DNA of 64,000 nucleotides, taken from NCBI RefSeq assembly GCF_965641715.1, contig NZ_OZ282453.1; one strand, given 5' to 3'. A program made the position numbers and the translations under genes. The notes under the pieces are model-generated. The model was not told the DNA's origin. It did not search any database and worked only from the letters and a program-made list of their open reading frames with translations. Positions 30,241-46,686 of this stretch are shown here, piece by piece. Position 1 is the first letter of the stretch. Each line of letters begins with the position of its first letter. This stretch comes from Escherichia coli. GTDB taxonomy: Bacteria; Pseudomonadota; Gammaproteobacteria; Enterobacterales; Enterobacteriaceae.

Positions 30241-30449
30241 ACCAGAATGATATCGAAGCCATGATTCAGCGTTATACGGAAGCTGAAATGGCGGTGCTGG
30301 ACGGAAAATCCGTCACCTTTAATGGTCAGCAGATGACCATGGAAAACTTATCTGAGATCCGGCAGGGACGGCAGGAGTGGGAGCGCCGCCTTGCGGCTCT
30401 GATTACACGACGACGGGGGCATCCCGGGTACCGGCTGGCGAGGTTCTGA
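30237..30449 (+). CDS. Head-tail joining protein (gpW-like)
   Basis: ~70-aa ORF between terminase and portal, GGAGG RBS; lambda order. Confidence 0.6.
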   Translation: MNQNDIEAMIQRYTEAEMAVLDGKSVTFNGQQMTMENLSEIRQGRQEWERRLAALITRRRGHPGYRLARF

Positions 30450-31957
30450 TGGCAATTCTTGATGATGTGATTGGCGTTTTTTCACCAGGATGGAAAGCGG
30501 CAAGGCTGCGTTCCCGTGCGGTGATCCAGGCTTATGAGGCCGTAAAAACGACACGGACACACAAAGCCCGGCGGGAAAACCGAACTGCCGACCAGTTAAG
30601 CCAGTACGGGGCCGTGTCGTTACGTGAGCAGGCCCGTTACCTTGATAACAACCACGATCTGGTTATTGGTGTATTTGACAAGCTGGAAGAACGGGTGGTG
30701 GGGAAAAACGGGATTATTGTCGAGCCACATCCGGTATTACGCAATGGGGCCATTGCCCGTGATCTGGCAGCGGAGATACGCACCCGATGGAGTGAATGGT
30801 CTGTCAGTCCGGAAGTCACCGGGCAGTTTACCCGTCCGATGCTGGAACGTCTGATGCTGCGTACCTGGCTGCGCGATGGTGAGGTGTTTGCCCAGATGGT
30901 TTCCGGGCGCATAAACAGCCTGACGCCTTCTGCCGGTGTTCATTTCTGGCTGGAGGCGCTCGAGCCGGACTTTATTCCCATGACCAGTGATGAGAGCAAC
31001 AGGCTGAATCAGGGCGTGTTTGTTGATGACTGGGGGCGTCCCGAAAAATATCTGGTGTATAAAAGCCGTCCCGTATCCGGGCGGCAGATGGAAACCAAAG
31101 AAGTGGATGCAGAGCGAATGCTGCATCTTAAATTTGTTCGCCGTCTGCACCAGATGCGCGGGACGTCTTTGTTGTCCGGTGTGCTGATCCGCCTCAGTGC
31201 CCTGAAAGAGTATGAAGATTCTGAGCTGACTGCAGCAAGGATCGCCGCTGCTCTGGGGATGTACATCCGGAAAGGCGACGGGCAGAGCTATGAACCGGAT
31301 GGTAATGGCAGCAAGGAGAATGAACGCGAGCTTACCATTCAGCCAGGCATTATTTACGACGATCTGAAACCCGGCGAAGAAATCGGAATGGTGAAGTCGG
31401 ATCGTCCCAATCCTAACCTTGAAACTTTTCGTAATGGTCAGTTGCGTGCCGTGGCGGCGGGCAGTCGTCTGAGTTTTTCCAGTACGGCACGCAACTATAA
31501 CGGCACTTACAGCGCCCAGCGTCAGGAGCTGGTTGAATCCACTGATGGCTACCTGATCCTGCAGGACTGGTTTATTGGTGCCGTCACCCGCCCGATGTAT
31601 CGTGCCTGGCTGAAACAGGCTGTGGCATCCGGTGTTATCAGGCTACCTCGCGATCTTGACCGTTCTTCACTGTATACCGCGGTGTATTCCGGACCGGTGA
31701 TGCCGTGGATTGACCCTGTTAAGGAGGCTGAGGCCTGGAAAATTCAGATTCGTGGTGGAGCGGCGACAGAATCAGACTGGGTACGTGCAGGTGGTCGTAA
31801 TCCGGATGATGTCAAACGTCGGCGCAAGGCCGAAATTGATGAAAACCGCAAGCTGGATCTGGTATTTGATACCGATCCGGCCAGTGATAAAGGAGGCAGC
31901 AGTGCCGCAACGAAACGACAGGAGCCGCAGCACACCGACGACCAGTCCGAAGAATAA
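30449..31957 (+). CDS. Portal protein (lambda gpB family)
   Basis: ORF 30377..31957; start at ATG 30449 (MAILDDVIGVF); position and size. Confidence 0.85.
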   Translation: MAILDDVIGVFSPGWKAARLRSRAVIQAYEAVKTTRTHKARRENRTADQLSQYGAVSLREQARYLDNNHDLVIGVFDKLEERVVGKNGIIVEPHPVLRNGAIARDLAAEIRTRWSEWSVSPEVTGQFTRPMLERLMLRTWLRDGEVFAQMVSGRINSLTPSAGVHFWLEALEPDFIPMTSDESNRLNQGVFVDDWGRPEKYLVYKSRPVSGRQMETKEVDAERMLHLKFVRRLHQMRGTSLLSGVLIRLSALKEYEDSELTAARIAAALGMYIRKGDGQSYEPDGNGSKENERELTIQPGIIYDDLKPGEEIGMVKSDRPNPNLETFRNGQLRAVAAGSRLSFSSTARNYNGTYSAQRQELVESTDGYLILQDWFIGAVTRPMYRAWLKQAVASGVIRLPRDLDRSSLYTAVYSGPVMPWIDPVKEAEAWKIQIRGGAATESDWVRAGGRNPDDVKRRRKAEIDENRKLDLVFDTDPASDKGGSSAATKRQEPQHTDDQSEE

Positions 31958-31970
31958 TTCCTGGTTCAGG

Positions 31971-33929
31971 ATGCAGGCAGGTCACCAGAGTGACGCGGAT
32001 ATTTATATTTATGACGAGATTGGTTTCTGGGGTGTTACAGCGAAGCAGTTTATCAGTGATCTGAATGCACTGGGCGATATCACCCACATTAATCTCCATA
32101 TTAATTCACCGGGTGGCGATGTCTTTGAAGGCATCGCCATTTTTAATGCACTGAAAACACATGGTGCGTCCATTACCGTTTATGTCGACGGTGTGGCGGC
32201 GTCAATGGCGTCGGTCATTGCGATGGTGGGAAACCCGGTCATTATGCCGGAAAACTCCTTCATGATGATTCATAAACCATTTGGCTTTACGGGCGGTGAT
32301 GCGGAGGACATGCGCACCTATGCCGACCTGCTCGATAAAGTTGAGGCGGTTCTGTTACCCGCTTATGCACAGAAAACCGGGAAAACCACCGATGAAATTG
32401 CTGCCATGCTGGCGGATGAGACCTGGATGTCCGGTGCCGAATGTCTGGCACAGGGATTTGCTGATCAGGTGACACCAGCCGTTAAGGCAATGGCATGTAT
32501 TCAGTCAAAACGTACAGAGGAATTTAAAAAGATGCCGGAATCCATTCGAAACATGATTACTCCGCCACGCAACAGTGCTCCACGCGTACAGGATGATGAA
32601 CCTGCAGCCTCCCGGACGCCAGTGCAGGCAGCAGCACCCGTGGTGGATGAAAACAGTATCCGTGCGCAGGTACTGGCAGAGCAAAAAGCGCGTGTAAACG
32701 GTATTAATGATCTGTTTGCCATGTTTGGCGGGCGTTATCAGACGCTGCAGGCCCAGTGTCTTGCCGATCCTGAATGTTCGCTGGAGCAGGCCCGTGAAAA
32801 GCTGTTGAACGAGATGGGGCGCGAGTCCACGCCATCCAATAAAAATACCCCGGCTCATATTTATGCCGGTAACGGTAATTTTGTGGGGGACGGGATTCGC
32901 CAGGCGCTGATGGCGCGTGCCGGATTTGAAAAAACCGAACGTGATAATGTCTACAACGGGATGACCCTGCGTGAATATGCCCGTATGTCACTAACTGAAC
33001 GGGGTATTGGGGTTTCCGGTTATAACCCGATGCAGATGGTCGGTGCGGCGTTCACACACAGTACGTCTGACTTCGGTAATATTCTGCTGGATGTTGCGAA
33101 CAAAGCCATTCTGCAGGGCTGGGAAGATGCCCCTGAAACCTATGAACAGTGGACGCGGAAAGGTCAGTTGTCTGATTTTAAAATTGCCCATCGTGTGGGT
33201 ATGGGGGGCTTCAGTGCTCTACGTCAGGTGCGTGAAGGGGCGGAATATAAATACGTCACCACCGGAGATAAACAGGCCACTATTGCACTGGCGACCTATG
33301 GCGAGCTGTTCAGTATCACCCGTCAGGCCATTATCAATGATGATCTGAATATGCTGACCGATGTCCCGATGAAACTGGGCCGTGCGGCGAAATCCACTAT
33401 TGCCGATCTGGTTTATGCCATTCTGACGTCTAACCCGAAAATCTCCACAGATAATGTAAGTCTGTTCGATAAAGCGAAACATGCAAACGTACTGGAGAGC
33501 GCTGCAATGGACGTGGCATCGCTGGATAAAGCCCGCCAGTTGATGCGCGTTCAGAAAGAGGGGGAGCGTCATCTGAATATTCGTCCTGCGTTCGTACTGG
33601 TACCGACGGCGATGGAGTCTGTTGCTAACCAGGTCATTCGCTCCTCAAGTGTCAAGGGGGCTGACATTAACGCCGGTATTATTAACCCGGTGAAAGATTT
33701 TGCGACCGTTATTGCAGAGCCTCGTCTTGATGATAACAGCCAGACCACCTTCTACCTGGCTGCGTCAAAAGGCTCCGATACGATTGAAGTGGCTTATCTC
33801 AACGGTGTGGATACGCCATATATTGATCAGATGGAGGGCTTCAGTGTGGATGGCGTGACAACGAAAGTGCGTATTGACGCCGGTGTCGCGCCAGTTGATC
33901 ACCGCGGTCTGGTGAAATGTACGGCGTAA
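31971..33929 (+). CDS. Prohead protease (ClpP/S49-like) fused to major capsid protein
   Basis: N-terminal IYIYDEIGFWGVTAKQFISDL...INSPGGDVFEGIAIFNALK...VDGVAASMASVIAMVG protease core; long C-terminal capsid-like domain; 652 aa. Confidence 0.75.
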   Translation: MQAGHQSDADIYIYDEIGFWGVTAKQFISDLNALGDITHINLHINSPGGDVFEGIAIFNALKTHGASITVYVDGVAASMASVIAMVGNPVIMPENSFMMIHKPFGFTGGDAEDMRTYADLLDKVEAVLLPAYAQKTGKTTDEIAAMLADETWMSGAECLAQGFADQVTPAVKAMACIQSKRTEEFKKMPESIRNMITPPRNSAPRVQDDEPAASRTPVQAAAPVVDENSIRAQVLAEQKARVNGINDLFAMFGGRYQTLQAQCLADPECSLEQAREKLLNEMGRESTPSNKNTPAHIYAGNGNFVGDGIRQALMARAGFEKTERDNVYNGMTLREYARMSLTERGIGVSGYNPMQMVGAAFTHSTSDFGNILLDVANKAILQGWEDAPETYEQWTRKGQLSDFKIAHRVGMGGFSALRQVREGAEYKYVTTGDKQATIALATYGELFSITRQAIINDDLNMLTDVPMKLGRAAKSTIADLVYAILTSNPKISTDNVSLFDKAKHANVLESAAMDVASLDKARQLMRVQKEGERHLNIRPAFVLVPTAMESVANQVIRSSSVKGADINAGIINPVKDFATVIAEPRLDDNSQTTFYLAASKGSDTIEVAYLNGVDTPYIDQMEGFSVDGVTTKVRIDAGVAPVDHRGLVKCTA

Positions 33930-33953
33930 ACGTCGCAGACAACAACTCTGATG

Positions 33954-33972
33954 GCCCGTAAGGGCTTTTTTT
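33954..33972 (+). terminator. Rho-independent terminator after capsid gene
   Basis: gccc-gtaa-gggc hairpin followed by TTTTTTT. Confidence 0.6.
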
Positions 33973-34015
33973 GTACCTGAAATCAGCCCCTGAACGGGGC
34001 TGTGCGGAGACAGTT

Positions 34016-34339
34016 ATGGCAAAGAATTTTGTAGAAGAAGGAAAAACGGTGGCGATTGTTGCCAGTGCAGCCATCAGCAGCGGAGATCTGGTGCAGGTGG
34101 GCGATGTTTTTGCGGTGGCGCTGACCGATATTCCACAGGGTGAAACAGGCGACGGCATGACCGAAGGTGTGTTTATGCTGCCTAAGCTGAAAACGGATGA
34201 CATGAAAACGGGTAAGAAGGTTTATCTGAAGTCCGGAAAAGTTCAGCTGACTAACAGCGGCTCTGATCCGCTGGTCGGGGTTGTCTGGGCAGATGCCGGA
34301 ACCAGTGCAGAAGAAGTGCCGGTAAAACTCAATGTCTGA
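34016..34339 (+). CDS. Head decoration protein
   Basis: ORF 33971..34339, start ATG 34016 (MAKNFVEEGK...) with GGAG RBS; position after capsid gene. Confidence 0.6.
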   Translation: MAKNFVEEGKTVAIVASAAISSGDLVQVGDVFAVALTDIPQGETGDGMTEGVFMLPKLKTDDMKTGKKVYLKSGKVQLTNSGSDPLVGVVWADAGTSAEEVPVKLNV

Positions 34340-34607
34340 TCCCTTTTCCCGGCTGGCAGCGCGTATGGATGCTATCACGGTCAGAAAGATGGGAAAGACA
34401 GCCTCGATTAATGATGTCGATATGACTGTGATCCCGGGAGAAACACTGGCAGAGCTGAATGCTCTGTCCGGACCTGCGGTCTCTCTGGTGGTGTTTTCTT
34501 CGGGATACCGCCCACGGCGCGGGGATCGCGTTGTTTATGACGGACAACAATGGACGGTCACACGGCATGAACGTTTTAACGGTAAGCCAATGATCTTTAT
34601 TGAGTAA
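34332..34607 (+). CDS. Head-tail connector/adaptor protein
   Basis: 91-aa ORF in head-completion position; overlapping start/stop. Confidence 0.5.
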   Translation: MSDPFSRLAARMDAITVRKMGKTASINDVDMTVIPGETLAELNALSGPAVSLVVFSSGYRPRRGDRVVYDGQQWTVTRHERFNGKPMIFIE

Positions 34608-46628: not shown

Positions 46629-46686
46629 TTAGCCAGGTAACACAGTGTTATGACAGCCCGCCGGTTCAGGCGGGCTTTTTTGTGGG

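Follow-up and report, generated by a model that had tools for sequence, protein, structure and literature searches.

A "tripartite capsid gene" of Gifsy-2 is said to have been described in 2010 by Effantin (Virology 402:355). Two papers, both citing Effantin 2010, give the Gifsy-2 capsid a T=7 geometry (PMC8814770) and describe its cement protein as trimeric and located on the 3-fold axes (PMC8538268). In MD8, protease, scaffold and major capsid protein (MCP) are encoded in a single gene, gp5 (PMC8508860). Here we analysed a window, that is, a whole stretch of 64,000 nucleotides from Escherichia coli (contig NZ_OZ282453.1 of RefSeq assembly GCF_965641715.1), in which a lambdoid prophage very probably carries a head gene of the Gifsy-2 "tripartite" type. 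The parts of its product follow each other in the order ClpP-like Ser-His protease, flexible linker, small helical domain (a putative scaffold, probably related to lambda Nu3) and HK97-fold MCP, as shown in Table 1. Note that genes of this type are already known and catalogued; the window copy carries little weight as a discovery, since characterisation of the type dates back to 2010, NCBI curates a family for it, and it is present in 2124 of the 5426 complete E. coli genomes (~39%).

Table 1. Features of the fusion gene and its neighbours in the window; aa positions refer to the 675-aa form.
Feature	Coordinates	Strand	Evidence or remark
Lambda-family portal gene	30449..31957	+	Pfam Phage_portal_2, E=7e-82; RefSeq annotation of strain 118UI mapped to window
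Shine-Dalgarno (SD) sequence AAGGAGG	31890..31896	+	5 nt upstream of GTG 31902
ClpP-like prohead protease / scaffold / major capsid protein fusion	31902..33929	+	675 aa, 73.5 kDa; RefSeq CDS boundaries, NF045540, Gifsy-2 identity
ClpP-like serine protease domain, aa 21-191	31962..32474	+	Pfam CLP_protease, NF045542, AF2, Foldseek
Ser101 codon, predicted nucleophile, motif GVAASMAS	32202..32204	+	Aligned with ClpP active-site Ser; 79/79 ClpP-type fusion relatives
His124 codon, predicted general base, motif MIHKP	32271..32273	+	Aligned with ClpP active-site His; 79/79 relatives
Glu173 codon, at ClpP catalytic Asp position	32418..32420	+	ClpP 1y7o alignment: D-N-W = E-T-W
Linker, aa 192-249: conserved motif SKRxEEFxxMP, then Pro/Ala-rich stretch, predicted disordered	32475..32648	+	
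Helical scaffold-like domain, aa 250-307, three helices	32649..32822	+	AF2, conservation, hhalign
Flexible hinge, aa 308-326	32823..32879	+	AF2 pLDDT <50 for aa 308-324; indel site among homologues
HK97-fold major capsid protein domain, aa 327-675, ~38 kDa	32880..33926	+	Pfam, profile, AF2, Foldseek
Short GC hairpin + T7 run, terminator-like, directly 3' of fusion gene	33953..33973	+	Scan and sequence
Head decoration (cement) protein gene, 107 aa, 11.1 kDa	34016..34339	+	PF09956, phrog_122, RefSeq start

Identity, start codon and internal starts

The gene is a single open frame on the + strand, which runs without a stop or frame break to the stop codon at 33927-33929. Its 652-aa form matched the NCBIfam model NF045540 with 986 bits (cutoff 475), residues 9-651 being aligned with model positions 2-651 of 652, and membership in this family is given by a whole-protein score over the curated cutoff, end-to-end coverage and the presence of both domains in one frame. 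Furthermore, the phrog_133 match spans the full length of the protein, the Pfam, NCBIfam and PHROG matches are all far stronger than chance would produce, and the RefSeq product name for the identical protein is [quoted passage not shown]. When the whole protein was searched directly by sequence against the PDB, ClpP chains alone were returned, and ClpP was also alone among the matches listed by Foldseek for the full-length AF2 model, which was of moderate quality (mean pLDDT 63.7). The capsid half was compared with the PDB by a separate C-terminal profile and a separate model. An earlier note on this DNA had read the ORF as a protease fused to a capsid protein, and Pfam, PHROGs, NCBIfam, the RefSeq name and the ClpP and HK97 folds agree with that reading. 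The note had named a frameshift or an internal start as signs of two separate genes; no frameshift is present, the alignment to nine homologues is continuous, and the sole plausible internal start, at Met211, is not conserved in the family (see below).

Judging from the sequence, translation most likely starts at GTG 31902, giving 675 aa. The RefSeq CDS also begins at this codon, 69 nt upstream of ATG 31971, which is codon 24 of the 675-aa form, and the first 56 nt of the fusion gene are also the last 56 nt of the portal gene, read in a different frame. The anti-SD duplex at GTG 31902 (-11.6 kcal/mol) was the best among all in-frame start candidates. In addition, its AAGGAGG is kept in Stx2d phage and appears as GGAGG in MD8, and the arrangement of SD and start is found again in both. 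It is unlikely that the gene instead starts at ATG 31971 and encodes 652 aa, the upstream 69 nt being portal end and spacer. Such a start would use the commoner start codon and leave the portal gene without overlap, the NF045540 model has 652 positions and aligns from residue 9 of this form, and several phage records set the feature on those coordinates. However, the anti-SD duplex there was -2.7 kcal/mol, with AGG abutting the ATG, and the RefSeq, Gifsy-2, MD8 and Stx2d-phage annotations begin upstream, overlapping the portal end. Moreover, the frame between the portal stop and ATG 31971 encodes Ser20 and Trp21, both of which are conserved. Gifsy-2 and MD8 have Ile in place of the Met encoded by ATG 31971, and the residues that directly precede it are conserved; this codon is therefore probably not the start. 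For annotation, the value of the GTG start is that it lies 69 nt upstream of the coordinate given in the earlier note, where this start and a third module, the helical domain of aa 250-307, were absent.

The linker carries the residues Phe208, Met211 and Pro212 within its SKRxEEFxxMP motif, and the conserved linker motif of the family is [F/Y]xxΦP. Met211 (ATG 32532) could in principle serve as an in-frame start of a nested gene like lambda C/Nu3, encoding a 465-aa protease-less scaffold-capsid protein, a reading that we consider improbable. If true, a minority of shell subunits would bear the protease, and the use of this start would determine how many procapsid subunits carry it relative to those that do not. 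Met211-Pro212 is invariant in the window, Stx2d phage, Gifsy-2 and MD8, and AGGA(G) is located 9-11 nt upstream in all four, with a duplex of -6.0 kcal/mol; lambda, according to its annotation, produces Nu3 likewise from within gene C, and this very Met is where gene callers place the start of copies that are truncated or frameshifted. The candidate was thus promising in four homologues, but it failed among 79 ClpP-type relatives, where Met was found in 6 and mostly Ala, Val or Ile took its place, and a Vibrio homologue has Phe. Pro212, on the other hand, was kept in 74 of the 79 (Phe or Tyr at 208 in 57), so that the conservation resembles that of a motif in the protein. The AGGA is accounted for by conserved Glu/Gln-Glu codons, its spacing is long, and the start of lambda Nu3 falls elsewhere in the alignment, near aa 153, a position without Met in the window protein. 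Of two "stand-alone" proteins beginning at Met211 (P0015 and P0019), one proved to be a copy with a frameshift and the other a fragment at the edge of a contig. There is likewise little chance that a nested Met211 start with AGGA upstream holds for the enterobacterial and pseudomonad branch, as the lambda C/Nu3 arrangement carried into the fused gene. Another internal candidate, Met137, was rejected; it has a strong GGAGG just 2 nt from its ATG, lies inside the protease fold and is Ile in Gifsy-2.

Unfused relatives were also considered. According to phmmer classification, the protease domain was absent in 35 of the 150 best cluster representatives. Four of these 35 were inspected as possible unfused scaffold-capsid genes and gave no evidence of natural unfused genes: one was a frameshifted fused gene and three were at or near contig ends, one of which (L014) stays in frame up to the edge of its contig.

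Protease, scaffold-like and capsid parts

Pfam CLP_protease (PF00574) matched aa 23-168 in 652-aa numbering (E=4.6e-36), and the model NF045542 Clp_rel_HeadMat, named "head maturation protease, ClpP-related", matched with 217 bits against a cutoff of 120. The AF2 model of this segment had pLDDT values of ~70-89, and Foldseek comparison of the protease half with ClpP structures gave E ~1e-11 and TM scores of 0.70-0.79 normalised to the ClpP chain. The scores for models of genuine ClpP were below the equivalog cutoffs (60 bits vs 308.6 for TIGR00493, 79 vs 249 for NF001368), and on these sequence scores the domain is ClpP-related, not ClpP. The protease had previously been labelled ClpP/S49; the ClpP-like (S14-type) half of this label holds, whereas the S49 half was dropped, with no Pfam match to Peptidase_S49 at E<=0.01 and 21.8 bits for SppA_dom against a cutoff of 155.

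A catalytic Asp as the third triad member is not present at the aligned position in the window protein, where Glu173 is located; 65 of the 79 ClpP-type relatives have Glu there and 8 have Asp, so that 73 have an acidic residue. This Glu in place of Asp and the scores far under the genuine-ClpP cutoffs (such as that of TIGR00493) would fit an inert domain that serves as structural or scaffolding mass alone, the head being matured by another protease. However, the invariance of Ser101 and His124 in all 79 relatives, the acidic residue in most of them, the above-cutoff match to a head maturation protease model and a head module without any other protease gene make an inert domain very improbable, and a predicted active protease is preferred.

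AF2 pLDDT values fell below 50 across aa 195-247 of the linker. The scaffold-like segment that follows was modelled as helices at aa 250-273, 280-288 and 294-307 with pLDDT 76-88, and it is also conserved in fusions with a different protease. When it was compared with the scaffold region of lambda C/Nu3, hhalign gave 86% with E=4.8e-6. These results are suggestive rather than decisive for a relationship between aa 250-307 and the lambda Nu3 scaffold, and the scaffolding role is putative. A separate scaffold gene had been reported missing, and this holds, as there is no room for one between the portal and decoration neighbours. The hinge of aa 308-326 is probably the region where maturation cleavage would release the mature capsid protein.

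In the capsid domain, Pfam Phage_capsid_4 (PF25209) matched aa 357-649 in 652-aa numbering (E=1.4e-54) and Mu-like_gpT (PF10124) matched with E=3.7e-8. A profile of the C-terminal half matched the solved Mu-GpT-type capsid protein 8rkc (E=2.3e-12). The separate AF2 model of the domain had a pLDDT of 86.4 and a pTM of 0.81, and all 50 of the 50 PDB matches listed by Foldseek were HK97-fold shell proteins, namely phage capsids, encapsulins and nanocages made from them, with HK97 Head II, T5 and D3 among them. In a profile comparison with the capsid part, lambda gpE had no detectable similarity, and the shell protein is therefore Gifsy-2/Mu-gpT-like, not lambda-like. The C-terminal ~400 aa had earlier been assigned to the capsid; its capsid identity stands, but the size does not, since the capsid fold proper is ~350 aa and is preceded by the linker and the scaffold-like helices.

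Neighbouring genes and proposed head maturation

A hairpin and T-run similar to that directly 3' of the fusion gene are present at the same place in Gifsy-2, Stx2d phage and MD8. The gene that follows had been called a decoration protein gene, and its product indeed matched PF09956 Phage_cement_2 (DUF2190) with E=1.4e-20 and 74 bits against a cutoff of 24, as well as phrog_122 with E=3e-47. When this protein was searched by sequence against the PDB, nothing significant and no solved homologue was found. The decoration gene adjoins the capsid gene at all homologous loci examined, and the order portal, fusion gene and decoration gene was also observed in Gifsy-2, MD8, Pmp14, yong2, a Vibrio phage, RcOceanus and S1.

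The window corresponds to the Qin site of E. coli (rspB–ydfJ), and ydfJ is truncated there. The prophage retains integrase, excisionase, repressor/Cro, Q, lysis, terminase, portal and head genes as well as fibres and a complete set of tail genes, and its late-gene set is complete. Although the locus is the Qin site with a truncated ydfJ and the Qin prophage of E. coli K-12 at the same site is defective, it is hardly credible that this gene is a relic of a defective prophage that yields no working head protein. The ORF is intact, many genomes carry it with 100% identity, genes from phages that were deposited as isolated and propagated match it at 99%, and it is accompanied by a gene set retained from integrase through tail and fibres.

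For the Gifsy-2-type head gene, the following course of maturation is proposed. By analogy with the HK97, lambda and Gifsy-2 pathways, the C-terminal capsid domains would assemble on the portal to form a T=7 procapsid, in which the N-terminal scaffold and protease parts would face inward, like the HK97 delta domain. Crowding within the shell may then switch on the protease domains, which would cut within the linker (~aa 195-247) and the hinge (~aa 308-326) and break down protease and scaffold, leaving a mature capsid protein of ~38-40 kDa. The shell would expand on DNA packaging and be cemented by bound trimers of the 11-kDa decoration protein from the neighbouring gene. We infer the cleavage sites, procapsid topology and stoichiometry from these pathways.

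Comparison with known systems

In HK97 gp4/gp5, as in the window, a delta scaffold segment is located N-terminal to an HK97-fold capsid protein and is destined for removal by a prohead protease; however, HK97 encodes its protease in a gene of its own, and this protease belongs to a different family. No decoration protein is known for HK97, which relies on chainmail crosslinks. Lambda is similar to the window in its lambda-family portal upstream, its small decoration protein and the alignment of gpC/Nu3 (hhalign 86%), where the gpC match covers the protease end and the Nu3 region alone. On the other hand, the lambda protease is annotated as S49, capsid E is a separate gene, D precedes E, and Nu3 is produced from a nested start.

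The NF045541 scaf_prot_MCP2 fusions of Rhodobacter phage RcOceanus and Stenotrophomonas phage S1 share a homologous helical scaffold-like segment and capsid domain with the window protein at 27-29% identity, as well as the order of portal, fusion and decoration genes. Their N-terminal protease, in contrast, is of a non-ClpP type, and the window protein scored 402 bits with the NF045541 model, for which the cutoff is 525. The window protein is a plain member of NCBIfam NF045540 scaf_prot_MCP1, from which it shows no difference. Pseudomonas phage MD8 gp5 is 57% identical to it; MD8 differs in its host and in a small insertion in the capsid A-domain region.

At the DNA level the gene is 99% identical to its counterparts in phages phi458, mEp460, cdtI, Tritos and Ayreon, and protein identity is 73-77% to the Stx2-converting phages and the mEp213/LLS group, the gene holding the same position in all of these. 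Alignment to Stx-phage capsid fusions, which the earlier note had proposed as a check, gave 76-77% amino-acid identity over the full length. These E. coli phage records (mEp460, cdtI, phi458, Tritos, Ayreon, Stx2, mEp213 and LLS) differ from the window in product names alone. Among the names given in phage records are "putative protease", "Nu3", "Major head protein" and even "terminase protein". Labels of this kind (protease, Nu3, major head protein, terminase) can hide the capsid gene from automated surveys. In the survey PMC8814770, no HK97-fold MCP was obtained for Gifsy-2, which may be due to the labelling of the gene.

Gifsy-2 of Salmonella (STM1034.3n) shows 70% amino-acid identity to the window protein over 97% of the length. 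The annotated Gifsy-2 product differs in its length of 696 aa, its N-terminal extension being longer and its hinge carrying an insertion of 7-8 aa; no functional difference from the window protein is known. As in the window, the Gifsy-2 gene encodes a ClpP-like protease, a central segment and a capsid protein in this order, overlaps the portal gene, and is followed by a 107-aa decoration gene that is 61% identical to that of the window.

Reading frame and start of the fusion gene

The window contains a single long open frame at 31710-33929 (+), and translation of 31971-33929, the segment singled out in the earlier note, gave 652 aa with no interruption. In this 652-aa form, Pfam placed CLP_protease at aa 23-168 (E=4.6e-36) and Phage_capsid_4 at aa 357-649 (E=1.4e-54), phrog_133 of PHROGs spanned the protein end to end, and the NCBIfam model NF045540 ('ClpP-like prohead protease/major capsid protein fusion protein') scored it at 986 bits, with a curated cutoff of 475 bits. 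Since these three independent libraries agree on content, the union of a ClpP-like protease and a capsid protein in one ORF, as the earlier note had it, is real and far beyond chance. The gene belongs to a known and well-catalogued family, of which it is an unremarkable member.

The start at ATG 31971, on the other hand, was not upheld. RefSeq starts the identical gene 69 nt upstream, at GTG 31902, which is preceded by AAGGAGG at a spacing of 5 nt and forms the strongest anti-Shine-Dalgarno duplex of all in-frame start candidates (-11.6 versus -2.7 kcal/mol for ATG 31971). In the alignment, Gifsy-2 and MD8 carry Ile in place of the Met at 31971, and Ser20/Trp21, encoded downstream of the portal stop and upstream of ATG 31971, are kept in frame. 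Because the RefSeq boundary is backed by the Shine-Dalgarno sequence, the duplex energy, the Ile substitution and the Ser20/Trp21 conservation, we took 31902 as most likely the start, giving a predicted protein of 675 aa and 73.5 kDa, to which residue numbers below refer. The Stx2d phage and MD8 have a Shine-Dalgarno sequence followed by a start codon at the equivalent place. From 31902, the CDS overlaps the final 56 nt of the portal gene. In strain FWSEC0008 (L011 31901-31923 versus window 31900-31957), the annotated portal CDS ends ~34 nt earlier than the window portal ORF, indicating that the portal C-terminus varies in the stretch overlapping the fusion-gene start.

A nested start at Met211 (ATG 32532), which would make a second product within the gene, appears improbable. 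Met211 is invariant across four homologues and AGGA lies upstream of the codon; however, position 211 is Met in only 6 of the 79 ClpP-type fusion relatives used for conservation, whereas the adjoining Pro212 occurs in 74, and the Vibrio homologue has Phe at position 211. The database proteins starting at Met211 (P0015, P0019) are a frameshifted copy and a contig-edge fragment, and the protease-less representatives P0056 and P0021 start 16 and 104 nt from contig ends. The single-gene reading is thus retained. Met137, with GGAGG just 2 nt off and lying inside the protease fold, was rejected as an internal start.

Domain anatomy and a possible maturation pathway

A full-length AlphaFold model, built from a 10-sequence alignment, was of moderate overall confidence (mean pLDDT 63.7) with the domains clearly resolved. 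The protease domain superposes on solved ClpP structures with TM 0.70-0.79 (normalised to the ClpP chain); Ser101 (GVAASMAS) aligns with the ClpP nucleophile, His124 (MIHKP) with the base, and Glu173 sits at the Asp position. An inert protease domain is unlikely because the catalytic Ser and His are invariant in the 79 relatives; of these, 65 have Glu at position 173 and 8 have Asp. The domain exceeds the cutoff of the curated NCBIfam model 'head maturation protease, ClpP-related' and scores far below the cutoffs of the genuine ClpP models. Pfam and NCBIfam searches gave no S49 signal, so that the 'ClpP/S49' description in the earlier note stands for its ClpP-like part and falls for S49.

Features of the fusion gene and its surroundings (window coordinates; aa in the 675-aa form)
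Feature	Position	Remarks
Lambdoid prophage	~6660-53200	~46.5 kb; integrase at ~6.7 kb, end ~53.2 kb
Two tRNA genes	21134-21386	downstream of late antiterminator gene
TolA-like fragments	22550-23360	between tRNA genes and lysis cassette
Small terminase (DUF1441), large terminase, gpW-like gene, lambda-family portal		upstream of fusion gene
Fusion gene (most likely CDS)	31902-33929 (+)
Alpha/beta protease domain	aa 21-191	confident (AlphaFold)
Pro/Ala-rich linker	aa 195-247	pLDDT below 50
[F/Y]-x-x-hydrophobic-P motif	32523-32537, aa 208-212	just C-terminal to protease domain
Three-helix segment	aa 250-307	pLDDT 76-88
Hinge	aa 308-324	pLDDT below 50
Capsid domain	aa ~327-666	mixed confidence (full-length model)
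Two hairpins	33953-34002	in 86-nt gap separating fusion and decoration genes
Decoration protein gene	34016-34339	107 aa; Phage_cement_2/DUF2190
91-aa product	34332-34607	RefSeq 'DNA breaking-rejoining protein'
Head-tail joining genes, Z, U, V, G/T, tape measure, M, L, K, I, J, Lom, tail fibres		after decoration gene

The capsid assignment held. Modelled alone (C-terminal 354 aa, 27 diverse sequences), this part reached pLDDT 86.4 and pTM 0.81; all 50 PDB matches listed by Foldseek were HK97-fold shell proteins (phage capsids, encapsulins and nanocages built therefrom), HK97 Head II, T5 and D3 among them, and its profile matched the solved Mu-GpT-type capsid protein 8rkc (E=2.3e-12). Since the helical middle segment is also kept in fusions bearing a different protease and hhalign matches it to the Nu3 scaffold region of lambda gpC (86%, E=4.8e-6), sequence comparison suggests three parts rather than two, the 'missing' scaffold being this segment within the gene. 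The earlier interpretation was therefore correct overall, except that it began the gene at 31971 and missed the putative scaffold segment. The motif that follows the protease domain is strongly conserved, with Pro212 in 74 and Phe/Tyr208 in 57 of the 79 relatives; it may serve for cleavage, for docking or to cap the fold.

Beyond the observed architecture, catalytic residues, folds and homology, maturation may be pictured on the model of HK97, lambda and Gifsy-2. On the portal, capsid domains would assemble into a T=7 procapsid enclosing the scaffold and protease segments. Crowded protease domains would then cleave the chain in its flexible linker and hinge and digest those enclosed segments, leaving a ~38-40 kDa capsid protein, and packaging expansion would create sites for decoration-protein trimers.

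Gene neighbourhood and prophage

The separate decoration gene that the earlier note placed after the fusion gene was confirmed. In the gap before it, the first hairpin is short and GC, followed by T7 (GGCCCGTAAGGGCT-TTTTTTT), and the second (CAGCCCCTGAACGGGGCTG) directly precedes the GGAG of the decoration gene. Both hairpins also occur at the equivalent place in the Stx2d phage and in Gifsy-2, where the stems differ in sequence, and MD8 shares the first. The hairpins may set the capsid-to-downstream expression ratio by terminating transcription in part or by stabilising the mRNA. The 91-aa product belongs to PF13856 (Gifsy-2), described as 'ATP-binding sugar transporter from pro-phage'; phrog_153, a weak Phage_attach match and its position point to a head-tail joining protein, and its names are likely legacy misnomers.

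The window is E. coli chromosome running from ynfE/rspAB through the prophage to truncated ydfJ, ydfI and dcp. The prophage occupies the Qin site, with rspB on one side and 5'-truncated ydfJ on the other. Its cargo is of Qin type (dicB, ydfD, hokD, rem, cspI, cspB/F relatives, gnsB, pinQ, tfaQ), and it has a complete head and tail module, which the Qin remnant of K-12 is not known to have. One of the two tRNAs (anticodon CAT) is Met by ARAGORN versus Ile in RefSeq, and the other is tRNA-Arg (TCT). The near-identical strain FWSEC0008 annotates the TolA-like fragments as a partial tolA pseudogene and a 'TolA C-terminal domain-containing protein'. Strain 118UI (L001 34715-35416) has IS200C between the lom-like and tail-fibre genes, absent from the window (46676-46684).

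Relatives and known systems

Fusion-gene DNA was matched in 2124 of 5426 complete E. coli genomes, with 1377 records at identities of at least 99%. Deposited phages phi458, mEp460, cdtI, Tritos and Ayreon carry genes 99% identical to it; given this identity and the complete prophage gene set, the gene is unlikely to be a dead remnant. RefSeq names the product a fusion protein. Phage records label it 'putative protease', 'head-tail preconnector protease C', 'Nu3', 'Major head protein' or 'head maturation protease', and two call it 'terminase protein'. According to PMC8814770, Gifsy-2 yielded no HK97-fold MCP in an automated pipeline, a miss that we infer to be tied to such varied labelling.

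A capsid-part search covering 1.84 billion cluster representatives returned 10,646 relatives. Among the best 150, the N-terminal domain is ClpP-like in 83 and of the RcOceanus/S1 type in 32, so capsid proteins of this clade are usually fused. Rhodobacter phage RcOceanus (L009 763-2805) and Stenotrophomonas phage S1 (L010 802-2784) have the matching helical segment and capsid domain with a non-ClpP protease domain (NF045541 type). As the shared body thus carries either protease, the comparison suggests that proteases were exchanged while the scaffold-capsid body stayed constant. The portal, fusion and decoration triplet also occurs in both these phages, Gifsy-2, the Stx2d phage, Pseudomonas MD8, Pasteurella Pmp14, Hafnia yong2 and a Vibrio phage.

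Alignment to Stx-phage capsid fusions, as the earlier note had proposed, bore out the relationship: protein identity is 73-77% for Stx2-converting phages, mEp213 and LLS, 72% for Fels-1, 70% for Gifsy-2 and 57% for MD8. Effantin et al. in 2010 reportedly described a 'tripartite capsid gene' in Gifsy-2. Papers citing that work give the Gifsy-2 protease and coat genes as fused (PMC12315714), the capsid as T=7 (PMC8814770) and a trimeric cement protein at the 3-fold axes (PMC8538268), and in MD8, protease, scaffold and MCP were independently described in a single gene (PMC8508860).
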